Source: Chroococcidiopsidaceae cyanobacterium YX2bin18
Lineage (GTDB): Bacteria > Cyanobacteriota > Cyanobacteriia > Cyanobacteriales > Chroococcidiopsidaceae
NCBI GenBank assembly: GCA_030446505.1
Contig: JAUJND010000004.1
Location: 9,099 to 73,098, forward strand
Direction of reading: 5' to 3'
DNA length: 64,000 nt
A program made the position numbers and the translations under genes. Positions 8,028-17,371 of this stretch are shown one piece after another (the stretch's first letter is position 1; every line of letters begins with the position of its first letter). Below the pieces are notes generated by a model. That model saw only the letters and a list, made by a program, of their open reading frames with translations, ran no database searches and was not told the origin of the DNA.

Positions 8028-8603
8028 ATGACTGCGTTCACCATCAGTCTGGAACCAGTAATTCACATGAGTGACGAACAGTTTTATCAGCTGTGTCGTG
8101 TCAATCCTGATGTGAAGTTTGAGCGCAGTGCAACTGGGGAACTCGTTGTTATGGCACCAACTGGAGGAGAAACAGGCAGTTACAACTCAGAAATTAATGC
8201 TGATTTTGTGATTTGGAATCGTCAAGCTCAACTTGGTAAAGTTTTTGATTCTTCAACCTGCTTTAAACTCCCTAAAGGCGGCGATCGCTCTCCAGATGTT
8301 GCCTGGATTGCTCTAGAACGATGGAATAAGCTCAGTCGTGAACAACAACGCAAGTTTCCGCCTATTGCACCAGACTTTGTACTAGAACTTCTTTCCCCAA
8401 CTGATAACTTGGAGAAGACTCACGCAAAGATGCAGGATTATCTCAACAGTGACGTGAGGTTGGGTTGGTTAATTGACGCAGACAATCGCATTGTTGAAGT
8501 TTACCGGATAAATCAGCCAGTAGAAGTTTTGAAGGAACCGAAACAACTCTATGGAGAAAATGTGCTGCCTGGATTTGTTTTGGATTTGAACAGTGTTTGG
8601 TAA
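8028..8603 (+). CDS. Uma2-family (DUF820) endonuclease-like protein
   Basis: 191-aa intact ORF; FERSATGELVVMAPTGGETG, SPDVAWI, APDFVLELLSPTD are typical Uma2 blocks. Confidence 0.75.
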   Translation: MTAFTISLEPVIHMSDEQFYQLCRVNPDVKFERSATGELVVMAPTGGETGSYNSEINADFVIWNRQAQLGKVFDSSTCFKLPKGGDRSPDVAWIALERWNKLSREQQRKFPPIAPDFVLELLSPTDNLEKTHAKMQDYLNSDVRLGWLIDADNRIVEVYRINQPVEVLKEPKQLYGENVLPGFVLDLNSVW

Positions 8604-8671
8604 ATACGCTAACGCAGTAGGGACTTGTAAGGGCGTAGGCAAAGCCCGCCACAGGCATCGCCTCAAATTTG

Positions 8672-9043
8672 TTAAGGGGAAGTTAATTTGTCTTGCAACG
8701 GGGCAGGATCATCCAACTCAGCAAAAGCGACTTTTACACACGCACGAACACCCTTCCAATCACGTTCTGATAATTTACCAATTAAAACTAAATTAGCAGA
8801 GGGTGGCAGAGTGACAACAAAACTGCGGAAAACAGATGCAACCCGCAAACCTGCTGTTTCCCAATCTTGAAGTGCATAGTCAGTAGCTCCTAGACCAGTT
8901 CTCTGAGAAGTAATGAGTCCAACTATCACATCGGGACGAATTTTGTGGTATTTAGCTGACGATAGAACTACAGCAGGGCGACGTTTTATCCCAGTAACAG
9001 CAGGAAAATCTACTGTGACTACATCACCTGGATTAAAAGTCAA
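8672..9043 (-). CDS. PemK/MazF-like type II toxin
   Basis: 123 aa; N-terminal GDVVTVDFP...RPAVVLS...DVIVGLITSQ pattern of MazF/PemK. 4-nt overlap with the upstream small ORF. Confidence 0.65.
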   Translation of the reverse strand: MTFNPGDVVTVDFPAVTGIKRRPAVVLSSAKYHKIRPDVIVGLITSQRTGLGATDYALQDWETAGLRVASVFRSFVVTLPPSANLVLIGKLSERDWKGVRACVKVAFAELDDPAPLQDKLTSP

Positions 9044-9261
9044 GCAAGCTCCTCGTCTTCAGGGAAGATTGTAGATGCATATTGCAATGAGAAATTTGCT
9101 AGATCAGTTTGATCTTGTTCAGTCCAAGTATCACCTTGATCGATAACAGACTCATTTTGCTGGACTAACTCATTGAGGATAAGGGTTGCTAAACGTAGCC
9201 GCTCATTTGGTGACAGGATACGAACAACTTGGCTATAAACTTCTTGAGCAGTGGTTGGCAT
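9040..9261 (-). CDS. Putative antitoxin partner of the MazF-like toxin
   Basis: 73-aa acidic ORF translationally coupled to 8672..9043. Assignment by context only. Confidence 0.45.
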   Translation of the reverse strand: MPTTAQEVYSQVVRILSPNERLRLATLILNELVQQNESVIDQGDTWTEQDQTDLANFSLQYASTIFPEDEELA

Positions 9262-9576
9262 AAATAAGTTCTCCTAACGTTCATCCTAGCCTGAACTAGT
9301 CATCCAATGTCGTAATGCGTCTGGCTGCAACGATATTTAGTTTCTGCATAGCCATGCATCTTACCTCCAATAGAAGTAATCTTTAATAAATCTGTTGCTC
9401 AACCTTATCCTGATAGTAATATCAACCTTTATCTTCAAAGTCTAAAGTTTAACTGATTTCACATGGCTCAAGACTCAAGCTCAATAAGTTTCATAAGTAC
9501 GCTCTATAACCTAGAACACACAACTGACAAAGCTAACTAGCCGTTCGGTGCAGCAATTTGTTAGGCTGCGGACTAG

Positions 9577-10638
9577 CTAATGTACTTGACTACTGCTGCC
9601 TACTTCTTGAACACCTTGCGCCACAAAACTGGGATAGCTTGAGCTTTGCTGACCCTGCCACTTTCTAAAAAGTTTAGAAGGGTCGCGGGACTGTTTCAAG
9701 TTTTCTTTTATACGAATCGCCTGCCAAGTCGTATCAAACTGATATGCACACTTTGGCTCAACCGAATACATAAAAGCAATCAAACCATCAATCCTCAAAA
9801 TATACAACCCTATCGAATCTGGATCTTGAATACCAATCTTCTCTAAATGGTCTTCTAGACCGTATTTGTAAGCGTAATATAGTAATTGTCTAAGTTGCAT
9901 CTTCACTTGTTTTGGCAGTCGGGGCATCACTTCATCAAAAACTGTCAGTCCAGTTACATATTGAGGTTTACCTCGGCACTGGCACTTCCATTTATCTGGG
10001 TTGAGTTTGAAGCCATAGCTTTCAATGCATCGAGAAATTTTCTTCTTTTTGGGGACTTCTTCACCGGAAAATGTGATGTCATCCGCATATCTAGAGTATG
10101 AACAACCATATTCCTGACCTATTTCAACTAACTTCTTATCTAGTTCGATACAAACTAAGTTAGCTAAAATCGGACTCGTGTTAGCTCCCTGTACTAAGCA
10201 TTCATTGAGAGTACAAACCTGTGCAAATATAGATGCAACCTCCTGATTACATCCAAGTAGTTCTTCAAAGACCTGAACAACTTTATCAATTTTGATGGAT
10301 TCAAAGAAATCTTTGATATCTAAGTTAAGAACATACCTACGACCTAAATGTATAGAGGCATTTGTAACGATTGACCTTTTAGATACAAATCCCTGAACAT
10401 ATTCAGGAAAATCAACCTTTGCGGCAATGGATGTAAGAATATTCTTATGTATGTTTTTGAGATTATCATTTACCTCGTATACGATTCGAGGTTCTGAGCG
10501 TCTCTTCCTTGGAACACATAATGATTTGTAACAACTAGCAGGATAATCAAGTACATACTGAATAAAGTTTGGTTGACAACCCAGTACCCCTGCAACATCC
10601 TTAATATTATCTAGTTTTTCAAAGTCAAAATAATTCAT
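9577..10638 (-). CDS. Retron-type reverse transcriptase
   Basis: 353 aa. RT motifs LNLDIKDFFESI, LVQGANTSPILANLV, YSRYADDITFSG, GFKLNPDKWK, plus retron hallmarks SKRSIVTNASIH (NAxxH) and QYVTGLTV (VTG). No maturase/X or endonuclease domain. Confidence 0.85.
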   Translation of the reverse strand: MNYFDFEKLDNIKDVAGVLGCQPNFIQYVLDYPASCYKSLCVPRKRRSEPRIVYEVNDNLKNIHKNILTSIAAKVDFPEYVQGFVSKRSIVTNASIHLGRRYVLNLDIKDFFESIKIDKVVQVFEELLGCNQEVASIFAQVCTLNECLVQGANTSPILANLVCIELDKKLVEIGQEYGCSYSRYADDITFSGEEVPKKKKISRCIESYGFKLNPDKWKCQCRGKPQYVTGLTVFDEVMPRLPKQVKMQLRQLLYYAYKYGLEDHLEKIGIQDPDSIGLYILRIDGLIAFMYSVEPKCAYQFDTTWQAIRIKENLKQSRDPSKLFRKWQGQQSSSYPSFVAQGVQEVGSSSQVH

Positions 10639-10924
10639 TAGGAGAGATCCGAGGGAGTAAGGTTACTAAATTGAGATATCCTGAACCGAGCGCGACTCGC
10701 ACCCAGTAGCTAATGTTTACGCCCTCAGATCCACACTAAATTATACCCTAACTAAAATTAGACTTGCCAGTTCTCAATTACACGAAGGGATTCTTGCGTG
10801 TAAAAAATTCTCCTGTTCCATAATTGTGAATAACTCTGATTTTAGGACGCAGCATAGAAAAGTGCCTTGCTTGCCAAGAGCCTGAGTTGTCACACTTATT
10901 AATCTCTCCACCTTTTGCATCCTC
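10639..10924 (-). ncRNA. Candidate retron non-coding RNA (msr-msd) region; boundaries not determined
   Basis: 286-nt ORF-free spacer between the DUF3800-like gene and the RT on the same strand. Nested inverted repeats (minus-strand sense): GGAGAGAT (10909..10902) with ATCTCTCC (10648..10641); GGATCTGAGGG (10732..10722) with CCCTCGGATC (10655..10646, one G-U); AATTGAGA with TCTCAATT; local hairpin ACACGCAAG/CTTCGTGT. Confidence 0.35.
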
Positions 10925-11515
10925 CTAATCCTTAAATACAGCTGCGACATAGTCTGCTACGGCTAGGCATGATTCTTCTTTACCAGCACTTCTGACTACT
11001 GGAGGACTAAGGAATTTACATACATCTTTCAACTGAATTTCATGAACTAATCGCTCTGTAATGGTTTTTAATTCCTGTTCACGAGCATTTAAAGAATTAG
11101 TATGCTGCTCGAAACAGATATTGACGATTGAATTATTATATTTACGCAGTCGATCATGCATCAACTTGCCAAAAAGTTGGTCGTACCAACCAAATCCTTC
11201 ACTAGCACAAAAGTCATGCCTCTTGCGTTTGTAACATATGTAAGCTTCAAATGGCAGTTCAGAAATTAAGTCAATAACTTTACTTCTAACATCCTGATGA
11301 TCTTCACAGTAATGAAAGCCTTTTTTTTGCAAATTTTTGACACTTGGAATATCTTTATATTGCTTCTCTTTTGGTAGGTCTAGCTTAAATTTTTCTAACC
11401 TATCCCTTAAATGTTTTGGTTCGCTTGTTGTAATACAGGCGATTGCAAGAATCTTTGATTCTTCATCAATACCTGTTTCATCAATGAACATGAAAACATT
11501 TTGGGTTGCCATCAC
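10925..11515 (-). CDS. DUF3800-like protein, putative retron effector
   Basis: 196 aa; N-terminal VFMFIDETGIDE resembles the FIDESG signature of DUF3800. Co-oriented directly upstream of the RT. AT-rich by eye. Confidence 0.6.
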   Translation of the reverse strand: MMATQNVFMFIDETGIDEESKILAIACITTSEPKHLRDRLEKFKLDLPKEKQYKDIPSVKNLQKKGFHYCEDHQDVRSKVIDLISELPFEAYICYKRKRHDFCASEGFGWYDQLFGKLMHDRLRKYNNSIVNICFEQHTNSLNAREQELKTITERLVHEIQLKDVCKFLSPPVVRSAGKEESCLAVADYVAAVFKD

Positions 11516-11549
11516 AGCTACTCAAGACTCAGGACTCAGCGCTCGCAAT

Positions 11550-12049
11550 TCAGGATTTACGTAGTTGGCTTACTAGGTGAGTTAGTTCTGGCAAAATCAG
11601 CTGTTGCATAGCTAGCTTGACAGCGTTGGTTGAACCAGGAAGGGAGAAGACTAATTTATTTTGATAAACACCAGCGATCGCCCGTGACGCGATCGCTCGT
11701 GAACCAATTTCTTGATAACTCAGCCAGCGAAATAACTCTCCAAATCCGGGCAAGGTTTTTTCTAGCAAACCCTCAATTGCATCGTAAGTAGTATCTCTGG
11801 GCGCAATACCAGTACCACCATTAAAAATCACAGCGTCCAAATCCGAGCGACCCAGCACTTCCATTTGAGCTTGAATCTCTATCGGTTCATCTTTGACAAT
11901 TGTGTACGCTCCCAAACTGTGATCCGCATCAAGGAGTAGTTGCTTAATTAACTGTCCACTACGATCTGTTTCAAGGGAGCAGTATCACTAACTGTAATCA
12001 CAGCGCAATTCACTATTAGCTTAGCGGTGTCAGGGTGAGGTTGCGCCAT
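11550..12049 (-). pseudogene. moaB: Molybdenum cofactor biosynthesis protein B (MoaB/Mog family), one frameshift near 11985
   Basis: ORF 11550..11915 has GGTGIAPRDTTYDAIEGLLEKTLPGFGELFR and SLPGSTNAV. The N-terminus MAQPHPDTAKLIVNCAVITVSDT (ATG at 12049) is in another frame and rejoins as ETDRSGQLIKQLLLDADHSLGAYTIVKDEP. Confidence 0.75.
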
Positions 12050-12096
12050 TCAATTAAGGGTTAAAACTGATAGATAGTAGGCAATTGGCTACAAAA

Positions 12097-12433
12097 CTAG
12101 GACTTGTTAAATCCTAGACCATGATCTCCGGCATACCTTTCCATAAAGCGCATGAAGCGATTCCATTCATCTGCCGATCTCATCAGGTACAACACTTCTA
12201 AAGCTTCAGGCTTACCATTAACAAATTTGCCTTTAACTTCGCGGGTTACTAATTCCCCTTCCTCATCAACCATGTACATCCCAGTAATTTCGTCAGCGCT
12301 GCCACTGTTTAAAGCTTTTGGGATTCTGGAAATAAAATGTCGCAGTACCATTGCTACCATCCCGCGAACGGGTGAGACGCACATCTGGGATAACTTCTTC
12401 ATCGATACCTCTGGCAAATTGAATTTGAGCCAT
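12097..12433 (-). pseudogene. psb28: Photosystem II assembly protein Psb28, single frameshift at an A4/T4 run (12316..12319)
   Basis: C-terminal [32 protein letters not shown]...[23 protein letters not shown] is a strong Psb28 match. The N-terminus [39 protein letters not shown] reads in the adjacent frame from ATG 12433. Confidence 0.85.
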
Positions 12434-14184: not shown

Positions 14185-15130
14185 CTAATGTTCGGAGCAG
14201 AGTTCTTTAACTAGCTCTCGGAATAGCAAATCGACTGCTTTCGAGCAAACACGCGATCGCGCTAATTTGACTGGTCGATGTTTCTTCTCATTGTCGAGCG
14301 TTTCGCCTAAAAGCTGTCCGGTCGGATTCTTAAGCCGACTTTTACGAGGCTCAATTCTTGTGAATAACCACTGCCAAAGCGCCATGCGACACAGGTTAGA
14401 ACCAGCTTTTTTAGTGCGAGTCTTGTCTCCTGAGTCCTCACGAGTAGGAGCTACGCCTAGCGCTTTCTGGAACCGTCGCCGCGACAAGTGGCGCTTGGTA
14501 GGATTGCCAGACACCTTAGACTCGCCAACCAATGAATCCACAAGGAGCAGCCCGAATTGCTTTTGGGCAGTACACGGCGTGGCGGTGGGAAGGCATGGGA
14601 CGAGCGATCACCACGAAGCATTGGTACAGGTGGTTGAAGTCAAGGTGCATCGAGATTTGAACAAAGATATGCAGCGGACGGGCGATACCAGAGTTACTGC
14701 CCAGGCAGATCGCACTGATACCGGACTATTCGGCATCAACCAAAATTAGGGTTACGATATGCCGACGAACAATATTGCTAATGCCAGCGCTGGCTGCTTG
14801 CTTGGCCGCACACGGGAAGGGCATCGGGAATTTATGCAGCTGATTAAGGGAGATAGCAGATATCAGCGCGATCGCTCCTTCATCTTCACTACTACGGTGA
14901 TTGCTGGTGATGATTTGTTTAAACGTCTTGGCTAGTACTGCTCTTAAGAGTGTTCTCCACAAGAAGGCTTAAACGCGATCATAGTTCAATAGATACCTCA
15001 ATTAAAGCGATGCTCCATGCCTGTAATTCAACGGGCAGCTTGTCCTCAATTGGACCGAGTTGCTCCTTAAGGAAGCGCTTGAAAGCATCCTTGAGTATCG
15101 TCTGGGGCGTTTCGTTGAGGTCTTCGGGCA
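14185..15130 (-). pseudogene. Degraded IS110-family-like transposase remnant
   Basis: ORF 14185..14541 contains FQKALGVAPTREDSGDKTRTKKAGSNLCRMALWQW, resembling the Transposase_20 C-terminal block (aGLtPxxxxSGxxxxgkxrisKxGnxxLRxaL). Upstream fragments lie in several frames. No ends identified. Confidence 0.4.
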
Positions 15131-15196
15131 TTTTAAGTTTTGTAACAAACTTACACAAGTCGCACAAGTCACACAACTCATAGTTTACGCCACAAA

Positions 15197-15412
15197 GAGG
15201 CAGGGGAGCAGGGGAGATGGGGAGCTGTTCTTGGCAACCCCATAGATAAATCTAGGGGAACCTGTGATAAGGACGTGCGTGAACCTTGCTGCAAGCAGTC
15301 TCGGTCCAATTAATTCTTGTTCTCCACAACTAAAGTTGGGGGCTTGTACCACATGGCAGAGGGGCATTTTTCTTCTTTCCCCCCTGCCCCTCTGCTCCCC
15401 TGCCCTCCTGCC
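15197..15412. repeat. Octamer-armed inverted-repeat element (MITE-like), copy 1
   Basis: G-rich arm ggcaggggagcaggggagatggggagc (about 15197..15226) and C-rich arm cccccctgcccctctgctcccctgccctcctgcc (15379..15412) are inverted repeats. The core shares three colinear blocks with the element at 50526..50863 in opposite orientation. Confidence 0.7.
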
Positions 15413-15753
15413 TTTTGGTCAAAGCCTATCTGTGGGGATTCAGTGTACAGCGACTAGCCAGTATTTCCGAATTTATAACGACTTGGGAGTGCTACCGTTG
15501 TCAGCATTGGACGTGAAGTTAGACGTGCCAGTAGATTTGTTTACAGCAGATGATCGGCTACTCGACCCCCGACTACGACGGCAGACCAACAGCGTTGTGT
15601 CAAAAACTTAGCCGAAGGGAAGCGCTCACGGTTGCAACATCCTGAATTCGATTAGAACTACGCAAGCTTTTGTCTACCTTGGGTTGTACCCAGTGCTTGA
15701 AAAATTCCCTAGCCTGATCTTAAAGAGCACTTAAATATAGGAAAAACAATTGT

Positions 15754-16313
15754 ATGACAACCGATATTTCTACTGAGAGTAAAAGGTGGTAATAGTTCAC
15801 TTTTGATTGGCGTTCTCCTAATTGTTTTGGGGGATTGTGGCGATCACTCAACCAGCAGTATCGACGATTTTCGCTGAGACTTGGTTTGCTGTAATCCTGA
15901 TTTCAGCAGGAGCAGCTAAGGTAGGCTACGCGTTTCAAACACGCAACTCTGGCGGCTTCATCTGGAAGCTTTTATTAAGCATTCTCTACATTGCGATCGG
16001 ACTGATGCTGTTTTTTTCCCCTTAAGGGTGTCCTAACACTGACCCTGTTGCTTGGTAGCTTTTGCTGACTGAAGGCGTATTCAATCTGATCCTGGCATTC
16101 CGGTTGCGTGGGCAACAAAACTGGACATGGGTATTGGGTGACAGCATCATTACTCTACTGCTAGGCGGAATGATTTGGTTCCAGTGGCCCTTCAATGCTC
16201 CCTGGCTGATTGGGACTCTGGTTGGTGTCAGCGTTCTATTCACTGGCATTTCACGGGTGATGCTGTCGTTGAATGCGCGAACAGCCCTGAATCCTTCTGA
16301 ATCCGCTTCTTGA
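15754..16313 (+). pseudogene. HdeD/DUF308 family membrane protein, at least three or four frameshifts
   Basis: MTTDISTESK..., then SSLLIGVLLIVLG, GIVAITQPAVSTIFAETWFAVILISAGAAKVGYAFQTRN, and LTEGVFNLILAFRLRGQQNWTWVLGDSIITLLLGGMIWFQWP...VGVSVLFTGISRVML, in different frames. One shift is at a T7 run near 16010. Confidence 0.65.
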
Positions 16314-16439
16314 GCGCGAATAAACTTAGCAGACTACCCTAGCTGCTGAATTTACTCGCGGTAATCACTCACAAGCGACCTTATTGTTTCTCGGTAGTAG
16401 TCCTAACTCATTTAGGACTACCAAGACTTAGTAACTGGA

Positions 16440-16862
16440 GCTAAGCAATGCCATGCTATTCTGCTTTACCCGATATTGCAGGATATTCGTATTTATCAGT
16501 ATATTCACAAGCTCCACCAGCCTCAGTAGCGATGTTGGAGCAGCGTTTTCCAAGGCAGTCTTGCAGCAGGTGGAATTGCTGCCCTTGCCAGGATTGCAGC
16601 AGCGGGTGAGCCTGTAGGGGCAGGTGTATGTTCTGTACCAAGTAACCAAACGATGGAGATTGCAGGTATTGGTGTACGTGCTACCTTCCGCCGTCGAGGT
16701 GTGGCAGGAGCACGCATGACTCGATAATGCAGGAAGCTTTTGCTGCGGGTATTGCTGTATCCTTCTTGATGGCTGCACATGAAGCAGAAGCAAGGATATA
16801 CGCTCGTGCAGGCTTTTTCCGTGCTCGGTGAGATTCTACATATCTCGCGTCCGCAAGCCTAG
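16440..16862 (+). pseudogene. GNAT-family N-acetyltransferase fragment(s), frameshifted
   Basis: My plus-strand translation gives MEIAGIGVRATFRRRGVAGA (GNAT motif A), then IMQEAFAAGIAVSFLMAAHEAEARIYARAGFF and EILHISRPQA-stop (16860..16862) in shifted frames. The N-terminal extent is unclear. Confidence 0.5.
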
Positions 16863-17165
16863 ACAATCCCGTTTGAAAGCAAGCAACGCAACACCGCCAA
16901 AACCGAGGAAGTGAAATTTTATAATCATGGCTGGGGCTGCTTACTAAAAGGCGATCACCTGGAACGCAAATTACAGTGCTATAACTTCGATCTGATGAAG
17001 TCAGAATTCCTGAGTTAGATTCGAGCGTTGGTTCCGAAGCGAGGACGAAGCGCGGTAAGCGAAACCATGCCGAAGGCGATTTGCCTTTGGCAGTACCGCT
17101 TGGTATCGCCACCATCAGCCATGGTAGAGTCGAGGGCGGGTATTATCCCGCGCCCCTCTCTGTTA

Positions 17166-17199
17166 GATCCGTGCGTAAAACTTTCGCCTTACACGGCTC
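17166..17199 (-). ncRNA. Group II intron domain V
   Basis: Minus strand reads GAGCCGTGTAAGGCGAAAGTTTTACGCACGGATC: a 34-nt hairpin with the AGC triad and a GAAA tetraloop, as in the domain V consensus. Confidence 0.8.
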
Positions 17200-17371
17200 C
17201 CGATTCAATTAGGCAGTGCCTTTGCTCATGTGTATGTAATCGTGGCAGGACTCGTGTAGAGCTTCCAGATTATTTAATTTCCAGTTGTGTTGGTTTCCGT
17301 CCTTGTGATGCAAGTTAACTTGCTCCTCGGAGAGTTGTCTTTAGTCCACATCTAGCACATGAATGGTTTTG

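Follow-up and report, generated by a model that had tools for sequence, protein, structure and literature searches.

The 64,000-nt stretch of contig JAUJND010000004.1 analyzed here (the window, to whose positions all coordinates refer) carries on its minus strand a module made up of a DUF3800 gene, a candidate structured noncoding RNA (ncRNA) and the gene of a retron-type reverse transcriptase (RT). The combination of RT and DUF3800 is type VII of the 2020 retron classification (PMC7736814), and the window system probably belongs to a divergent cyanobacterial subclade of type VII-A2, in which RT and RNA are intact in the window and the DUF3800 effector is truncated. In the open reading frame (ORF) list the two genes appear as minus-strand ORFs of 353 amino acids (9577-10638) and 196 amino acids (10925-11515), with a gap of 286 nt between them. 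GC content is 0.34-0.41 inside the module versus 0.42-0.46 alongside, in line with the AT-richness that an earlier note on this DNA had ascribed to it. The features of the module are collected in Table 1.

Judged from its sequence, the 353-residue protein is a retron-class RT. The earlier note had claimed three RT motifs and the lack of a maturase or endonuclease domain, and both observations were borne out: RVT_1 was the only domain found in the Pfam scan (E=3.5e-20), which returned no maturase or endonuclease domain, and TNASIH (NAxxH), QYVTGLTV (VTG) and RYADDITF (YADD) are all present, their columns being invariant or near-invariant across 42 RT homologues (N93, at least 90%; A94, H97, V228, T229, G230, Y184, D186, and D187). 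NCBIfam retron models scored the RT at 181-196 bits (St85 family, 181), as compared to 45 bits for group II, 44 for Drt3a, 37.5 for Drt2, and 13 for AbiA among nonretron RT classes, and 82 PADLOC retron-type RT models matched it, the best with 263 bits. The leading PADLOC scores are nearly tied (RT_III-A 263, RT_VIII 250, VII-A1 249, and RT_VII-A2 245 bits), such that automatic typing could mislabel or miss the system. In a neighbor-joining tree of 94 RTs of the fetched loci, every DUF3800-linked RT, whether separate or fused and including that of the window, fell into one clade. A cyanobacterial group containing the window RT lies inside this clade, adjoining L002 and L086, and the RTs of PRTase (III-A) loci branch elsewhere. 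As the tree was built without bootstrap and without the Mestre reference RTs, membership of the window RT in the clade of DUF3800-associated RTs, clade 4 of Mestre et al., is likely, not proven.

The 196-residue ORF encodes the DUF3800 partner that had been proposed (Pfam, 22.7 bits at a cutoff of 21; PADLOC DUF3800_VII, 148.5 bits, E=4.8e-44) and is annotated by NCBI as a 195-residue product, P0121. It is shorter than 44 of 45 DUF3800 homologues, the exception being a 113-residue partial sequence; the 39 homologues that were aligned span 232-257 residues, and no relative with the 196-residue form as a conserved state occurs among the homologues found. The ORF ends at an in-frame TAG, a position that is occupied by a sense codon, usually for Tyr or His, in 39 of 39 aligned homologues and at which P0166, a protein in one 90%-identity cluster with that of the window, has Tyr. 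Translated through this position, the window frame reads ...VAAVFKD, a stop, EDAKGGEINKCDNSGSWQARHFSMLRPKIRVIHNYGTGEFFTRKNPFV and a second stop, and homologue P0122 (245 residues, 88% identical) reads ...VVAVFKDYEDVRDRETNKCDNSGSWQARHFSMLRPKIRVIHNYGTGEFFTRQNPFL. After the TAG the frame stays open for 48 conserved codons up to a TAA at 10778-10780. By tblastn, P0122 aligned over all 245 residues through the stop (86.9% identity), the 48 codons beyond it matching P0122 at 85%, a value close to that of the upstream part. In blastn, one continuous high-scoring segment pair with relatives reached from the start of DUF3800 through the TAG to the stop of the RT gene. Reading the TAG as Tyr raised the DUF3800_VII score from 148.5 to 178 bits, extended profile coverage from 3-186 to 3-225 of 233, and brought the coverage of RT-DUF3800 fusion profiles to their final residues. 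The lost 48-residue piece carries the family-invariant K225, R227, I229, and F237.

Since 10778-10924 (147 nt) is effector coding sequence, the true intergenic region is 10639-10777, or 139 nt; the distance from effector stop to RT start was 132-157 nt in the 28 look-ups measured, the window included. The 286-nt noncoding spacer of the earlier note must accordingly be abandoned, because the DUF3800 gene, with its conserved 3' terminus, occupies the first 147 nt. Nested inverted repeats, also claimed earlier, do exist within the 286 nt, but the long-range repeats I7 and I8 reach into 10900-10930, a variable coding linker and the most variable stretch of the protein alignment; folded alone, the 286 nt were not unusual (z = -1.22). 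The pair GGAGAGAU (10902-10909) and AUCUCUCC (10641-10648), considered as a1 and a2 of a 269-nt RNA, was rejected because the 5' arm is unconserved and lies inside the variable coding linker of the effector. An intact three-part system composed of a 196-residue DUF3800 effector, a 286-nt ncRNA gene, and the RT, as the earlier note had envisaged, would accommodate the ORF coordinates, which hold, the 195-residue NCBI annotation, and the repeats. It is nonetheless highly improbable in light of the longer homologues, the 48 conserved codons beyond the TAG that fit the C-terminal part of the PADLOC DUF3800 profiles, the unremarkable fold, and the location of the repeats. A retron RT, a DUF3800_VII gene, and a structured RNA between the two remain from that anti-phage proposal, with the effector truncated and the RNA about 88 nt long rather than 286.

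Above-chance structure of the spacer lies in 10645-10732. Approximately 18 distinct related DUF3800-RT loci were collected from metagenomes and genomes, and 16 distinct sequences were aligned for RNA analysis; the metagenome scan contributed eight loci, and a scan of genome contigs with the RT alignment gave one close relative, L001, among the matches listed, the others belonging to other retron types. The alignment reveals two covarying helices, P1 and P2. P1 comprises 11 bp, nine of which have changed on both sides across homologues, and RNAalifold proposed 26 pairs in total, 13 with compensatory changes. Under the specified structure 98.2% of alignment cells pair, as compared to 34-46% when partners are slid by 1-3 columns; both sides have changed in 13 pairs versus 3-5 in the controls with slid partners, and the observed pairing values were reached by 0 of 500 shuffles. 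A covariance model made a single strong match in the window (130.8 bits, minus strand), the other being a 21-bit reverse-strand echo at the same site. Across loci, it scored 101-132 bits on the gene strand versus 19-37 bits, a gap of 65-112 bits.

The linker between P2 and the 3' arm of P1 is unpaired and spans 25-35 nt across loci. No further covarying helix or pseudoknot was detected in this 3' linker, where candidate pairs formed no run of consecutive pairs and amounted to two-subgroup noise, and a 2-bp linker hairpin drawn by RNAalifold had no compensatory support. The GUAA within the motif at 10716-10721 can pair with UUAC at 10657-10660; these four pairs never vary and so provide no covariation evidence, leaving the pairing as a possibility. 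The base that follows P1 is C or U, succeeded by the invariant G of GUAAA, and UUAG is absent from the 16-locus alignment; a UUA preceding the branching G after a1 is the common expectation (PMC10849725). A long msd stem-loop is likewise absent from the window RNA, which contains only the 9-bp P2 and the unpaired linker, while type III-A loci subjected to the same examination show one.

Upstream of P1, a -10 box has the sequence TATAAT in 15 of 16 loci (TAAAAT in the remaining locus), at a distance from P1 of 7 nt in the window and 6-7 nt across loci; L094 has TTGACA at -35 as well. A generic promoter and terminator scan left this conserved site unlisted and did not perform above chance, and the promoter call therefore rests on conservation instead. 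Rfam searches of 9000-12200 with E up to 10 returned nothing significant, and in this region of the window no family attained its gathering score. Taken together, an RNA of about 88 nt with its own predicted promoter, situated in the 139-nt intergenic region, could be the ncRNA of type VII.

Table 1. Positions of the retron module's features in the window and the basis of each assignment.
Feature	Position	Strand	Basis
Retron-type RT gene, apparently intact, 353 amino acids	9577-10638	-	Pfam, PADLOC, NCBIfam, conserved motifs, tree
P1 3' arm (a2-like), CCCUCGGAUCU; ends 6 nt ahead of the RT ATG	10645-10655	-	Alignment, covariation
Structured ncRNA core, P1 5' arm to P1 3' arm; candidate msr-like RNA	10645-10732	-	16-locus alignment, covariation, covariance model
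Invariant CCUUAC, directly before P1 3' arm	10657-10662	-	16-locus alignment
Single-stranded 3' linker ending in CCUUAC; candidate short template region	10657-10685	-	No supported helix
P2 hairpin, 9 bp, AGU triloop, invariant CGAGUCG core	10686-10706	-	Four pairs with compensatory change
CGUAAA directly 3' of P1 5' arm	10716-10721	-	GUAA columns invariant; first position C or U
P1 5' arm (a1-like), GGAUCUGAGGG	10722-10732	-	Pairs with 10645-10655
TATAAT -10 box, predicted promoter of the ncRNA-RT transcript	10740-10745	-	Identical in 15 of 16 loci
Full-length DUF3800 (type VII effector) frame, broken by internal TAG	10778-11515	-	tblastn, PADLOC
48 conserved C-terminal codons downstream of the stop	10781-10924	-	K225, R227, I229, F237; PADLOC
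In-frame TAG at a conserved Tyr/His codon (premature stop)	10925-10927	-	Sense codon in all 39 aligned homologues

Related RNAs were detected beyond the closest relatives. The covariance model also detected an RNA immediately 5' of the RT in noncyanobacterial VII-A2 loci and in RT-DUF3800 fusions, with 54 bits for L002 and weaker scores for L005, L006, L003, and L004. These distant loci are exactly those with a DUF3800 domain, which a profile search located as a separate gene in L002, L003, and L086 and as a fusion to the RT in L004, L005, L006, and L018. Single-sequence folds of the distant DUF3800 loci showed a long closing stem around a short hairpin; the upstream region of L018 lacked such a fold. 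The RNA of L003, a canonical VII-A2 locus (PADLOC RT 464 bits, DUF3800_VII 281 bits), keeps both GUAAA and CCUUAC. Some loci without DUF3800 also contain the CGAGUCG 7-mer of P2, clustered at 250-380 nt ahead of the RT match; five of the five such loci checked are type III-A, each having a PRTase partner and scoring 386-449 bits on RT_III-A. In several of the III-A loci, most clearly in L030, L031, and L023, the hairpin is enclosed in a larger closed RNA and immediately precedes a long, msd-type stem-loop. No Rfam family matched the III-A and VII-A1 RNAs. On our reading of these sequences, P2 is homologous to an msr hairpin, and the type VII RNA would be a retron RNA without the long msd stem. 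As a separate observation, the CGAGUCG hairpin lies about 110-310 nt upstream of the RT start in L007, L011, L022, L023, L030, L031, L059, and L079, and the III-A (PRTase) loci that have it come from Firmicutes and Proteobacteria.

Alternatively, the conserved RNA could be a leader acting in cis on RT expression, for example with the RT on P2 and P1 occluding the start, no msDNA (the small RT product attributed to retrons) being made, and the system working by another route. Some defense RTs do act by routes other than msDNA. The end of the P1 3' arm only 6 nt before the RT ATG is suggestive of such control, and the missing msd stem-loop and UUA-G branch context are compatible with it, as is a census in which clade 4 retrons gave almost no reverse-transcribed DNA (RT-DNA; PMC10849725). 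A leader is nevertheless considered unlikely. P2 has the invariant CGAGUCG hairpin of the III-A msr part, whose RNAs have canonical msd stems, the order of promoter, closing stem, and RT is the retron layout, and the invariant loop and linker sequence exceeds what simple occlusion of a start site needs. As regards the census, its ncRNAs may have been mispredicted, or its gels may have missed very short products, and its authors themselves propose a noncanonical ncRNA (PMC10849725).

As sequenced, the effector lacks its conserved C-terminal 48 residues, and because the TAG removes this module, the system is probably disarmed unless the TAG is a sequence error. Adjoining the DUF3800 gene, moaB (11550-12048, minus strand) contains a frameshift near 11980, such that its N-terminal 33 codons (MAQPHPDTAKLIVNCAVITVSDT...) and the remainder are in different frames; insertion of one base at about that position gave a full MoCF_biosynth match (profile 1-144, 108.6 versus 88.6 bits). 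Conceivably, though this is the less favored view, the TAG and the moaB frameshift are both assembly or sequencing errors and the organism has an intact, armed type VII-A2 retron. A second gene-breaking lesion lies about 1 kb off in a housekeeping gene, the sequence past the TAG shows no extra decay, and the source looks metagenome-derived, with an identical RT also on a 2-kb Logan contig. Yet an independent Logan assembly, of SRR24765286, equals window positions 8762-10783 with 0 mismatches, which indicates that the sequence neighboring the TAG is accurate, although it ends short of the TAG itself; no independent assembly spanning the TAG was found, Logan contig L081 ending at 10783. Moreover, the lesion is a stop-creating substitution and not a typical indel error, and two other loci have effectors broken by other means, making real inactivation plausible.

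One of these two is the metagenome-assembled genome QQTW01 (L085:2973-2998, L088:1233-2347), in which an IS630-type element splits the DUF3800 gene after residue ~157. The element has helix-turn-helix (HTH) and DDE_3 transposase ORFs and matching terminal inverted repeats, and the RNA and RT downstream are unbroken, the RT being complete in L088. L086 and L089 are nearly identical loci on GC-rich, noncyanobacterial metagenome contigs; two 1-nt deletions break the DUF3800 frame in L089:2431-3181 as compared to the intact L086:2432-3181, with the RNA of L089 unbroken and its RT unbroken over the first ~190 residues. Three broken effectors versus no broken RT among the ~18 loci hint at a costly effector.

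An AlphaFold2 model was built for an 88%-identical homologue of the effector from the alignment of 39 homologues (predicted local distance difference test score, 90.3; predicted template modeling [TM] score, 0.89). All of the top 20 Foldseek matches were RNase HII, H2, or H3 (probability 1.0; TM-score normalized to query, 0.33-0.49), and the best among solved structures were archaeal RNase HII and human and mouse RNase H2 (E 1e-6 to 1e-4, TM-score 0.4-0.5). The effector is thus predicted to have an RNase H2-like fold with a four-carboxylate site. D12, E13, E136, and D188 are invariant in the 39 homologues and occur in the window ORF within FIDETG, FEQH, and ADY, so that all four carboxylates (DE...E...D) precede the TAG; in the model the truncation falls within helix 183-204, and the final helix (214-225) and a beta-hairpin (226-238) are lost with it. 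Mestre et al. described the DEED carboxylate site of DUF3800 and obtained the same RNase H2/HII-like result by threading (PMC7736814), and elsewhere DUF3800 is called only an RNase H-like fold tied to ncRNAs and defense loci (PMC10910872, PMC13594972, PMC5737381).

Such a fold raises an alternative role for DUF3800, namely as the retron's own RNase H, acting in template removal or junction trimming, with the output of the system coming from the complementary DNA (cDNA) or another factor and not from a DUF3800 toxin. The predicted RNase H2/HII-like fold with conserved D12/E13, E136, and D188 would suit this role, and in VII-A1 the domain is fused at the RT C terminus, reminiscent of retroviruses, where RNase H follows RT in fused order. 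DUF3800 genes also generally adjoin structured RNAs (PMC5737381). Against this, retron accessory genes characterized so far are effectors (PMC7736814 and later work cited there), and three independent DUF3800 disruptions with RT and RNA kept, albeit a small count, suggest a costly or toxic gene. On balance, we regard the RNase H role as somewhat improbable.

The best explanation overall, and one that we consider probable, is that the module is a divergent type VII-A2 retron copy with a DUF3800 gene, a sigma-70-type promoter, an ~88-nt RNA, and an RT, its effector likely disarmed. By analogy with characterized retrons, an RNase H-like effector, the RT, and the RNA would work together as follows. 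Transcription would start at P1, and the RT would recognize and bind the P2 hairpin. The P1 duplex would put a conserved G (G10720 in CGUAAA, the candidate priming residue) opposite the 3' linker, and the RT may then prime from G10720 and copy part of the single-stranded linker of ~25-30 nt; the resulting cDNA would lack a hairpin and be much below the usual length. The complex of RT, RNA, and cDNA would hold the RNase H-like effector back until phage infection disturbs it. Both anti-phage function and msDNA synthesis are thus inferred by homology.

Several points weigh against this explanation. At the level of the RNA, the GUAA/UUAC pairing never varies and hence is without covariation support, and the RNA lacks the usual UUA-G context for branching, with C or U instead of G immediately after P1. 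At the level of the proteins, the top PADLOC model for the RT is III-A and not VII-A2, the clade assignment comes from a neighbor-joining tree lacking bootstrap support, the Foldseek TM-scores of 0.4-0.5 are modest, and searching PDB sequences with the effector profile yielded chance-level matches only. As regards the TAG, the moaB frameshift nearby raises the possibility of assembly errors; the ratio of three broken effectors to no broken RTs is not statistically significant. Finally, the searchable literature contains no experiment on msDNA, toxicity, or defense for any type VII retron, and the clade 4 census result fits a wrong or very small template and equally well fits no msDNA.

A more specific version is advanced tentatively, as possible rather than probable: a minimal msr-like RNA lacking an msd hairpin may be in use throughout type VII (A1 and A2), producing a cDNA of ~20-35 nt or a primed stub, with DUF3800 acting directly on the RNA-DNA junction or hybrid. 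Such a minimal RNA would explain why earlier surveys lacked both ncRNA and RT-DNA for clade 4. If so, the retron product would be the substrate or switch of the effector and not a passive scaffold. The family in any case supplies a covariation-supported RNA with a predicted promoter and start site, and the CGAGUCG hairpin provides a sequence link to retron RNAs that have msd stems. It also defines bases open to mutation, so that the question of a type VII ncRNA becomes a direct experiment, and the candidate addresses an ncRNA that papers up to 2026 call unidentified for type VII.

Around the module, the PemK/MazF gene (8672-9043), the Uma2 gene (8028-8603), and MoaB (MoCF_biosynth, from 11550 onward) named in the earlier note are all present by Pfam. 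The PemK/MazF toxin and a 73-residue upstream ORF (8672-9261, minus strand) directly follow the RT, with the Uma2 nuclease (plus strand) beside them. Nucleotide homology with relatives runs from the effector start codon to the RT stop and no further (blastn); flanking genes differ in every locus, often including PemK, Gp49/HTH, ParE, YhaV, Abi_2, GmrSD, or Uma2, and these toxin-antitoxin and defense neighbors are nonhomologous between loci and lie outside the conserved module. The MazF pair was considered as a component of the system and ruled out, because homology stops at the RT stop codon and toxin-antitoxin neighbors vary by locus. Searching plasmids, phages, and viral contigs with the effector turned up no copies. 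We take the locus to be a chromosomal island copy, belonging to a subclade that occurs mostly in cyanobacteria.

The window itself is cyanobacterial, with 60 copies of the HIP1 octamer GCGATCGC, a cyanobacterial hallmark, versus 0.4 expected. No HIP1 site occurs in 8289-11673, the 3.4 kb that hold the toxin-antitoxin pair and the retron, versus ~3.2 expected from the window average of one per ~1.07 kb; this gap and the lower GC content fit recent horizontal acquisition. Elsewhere in the window, Rfam matched a group II intron catalytic domain at 17124-17201 (minus strand, 54.3 bits, above the gathering score), surrounded by a GC-rich, ORF-poor stretch at ~14200-17300. Given the lack of a long intact ORF around it, the match may represent a group II intron that has degenerated or has no ORF.

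Retron predictions are common among cyanobacteria; a 2019 review knew retrons in this group only in that form. Many genomes of Nostoc, Microcoleus, Leptolyngbyaceae, and Richelia have a different retron RT lineage, which forms its own clade at 34-36% identity to the window RT (L021, L025, L027, L034, L039, L046, L051, L052, L061, L064, and L069). With regard to type VII, a class defined computationally, the classification paper found no ncRNA for clade 4 RTs (PMC7736814), the 2024 census suggested that the clade 4 ncRNA might be noncanonical (PMC10849725), and a 2026 preprint lists the VII-A1 and VII-A2 msr-msd as not identified (10.64898/2026.04.27.721009). No type VII ncRNA and no experimentally characterized type VII retron were found in the searchable literature; subscription-only papers were outside its reach, and a prior description of the ncRNA is possible.

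Structured RNAs beside DUF3800 or RT genes have been described as the DUF3800-I to DUF3800-XI and RT-1 to RT-19 motifs (PMC5737381), a setting that the window RNA shares. RT-7 is the sole Rfam entry of related name to match, with 12.8 bits versus a gathering score of 116.8, and its match lies in coding sequence, not in the window RNA. RNase HII/H2 (PDB 3p83, 1eke, and 3puf) is the best match of the predicted effector fold (Foldseek E 1e-6 to 1e-4), but identity to the effector is 10-15%, the effector has DEED in place of DEDD (PMC7736814), and DUF3800 has an extra conserved C-terminal helix and beta-hairpin. With canonical msr-msd RNAs such as that of Retron-Eco1/Ec86, the window RNA has in common its own predicted promoter, closing terminal inverted repeats, an internal hairpin, and an RT immediately downstream. 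Canonical msr-msd RNAs measure ~150-250 nt, whereas the window RNA is ~88 nt, lacks the msd hairpin and UUA-G context, and has a cDNA that is a prediction.

Among retron types, III-A provides the closest RT profile (263 bits) and has the CGAGUCG triloop hairpin in the RNA upstream of its RT, but no PRTase or winged-helix partner is present at the window among the neighboring ORFs scanned, true III-A RTs score 386-449 bits, and III-A RNAs have the long msd stem-loop that the window RNA is without. Type VII-A1 has the same two domains, and L004-L006 have an upstream RNA with a long closing stem and CGAGUCG hairpin; there, however, DUF3800 is at the RT C terminus, in contrast to the separate upstream gene of the window, and the GUAAA and CCUUAC motifs are not in the RNA of the fusions. 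The earlier note had suggested type VII, and this typing is supported by the adjacent DUF3800_VII gene and by the likely clade of the RT, but not by the RT profile score. The window differs from canonical VII-A2 in that its RT scores 245 bits on RT_VII-A2 as compared to 464 for L003 and has RT_III-A as its top match, and in that its effector frame is incomplete at the TAG and reaches 178 bits on DUF3800_VII after repair as compared to 281. It agrees with VII-A2, the type of the PADLOC models RT_VII-A2 and DUF3800_VII (PMC7736814), in having a separate DUF3800 gene that immediately precedes the RT gene on its strand, an effector with the DE motif near the N terminus plus the E and D carboxylates, and an RT that groups with DUF3800-linked RTs in the neighbor-joining tree. 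Canonical L003 also has the same RNA plan of closing stem, GUAAA, AGU-type hairpin, and CCUUAC. Type VII being known and PADLOC models for it existing, the window system adds a divergent representative to an already established retron type.

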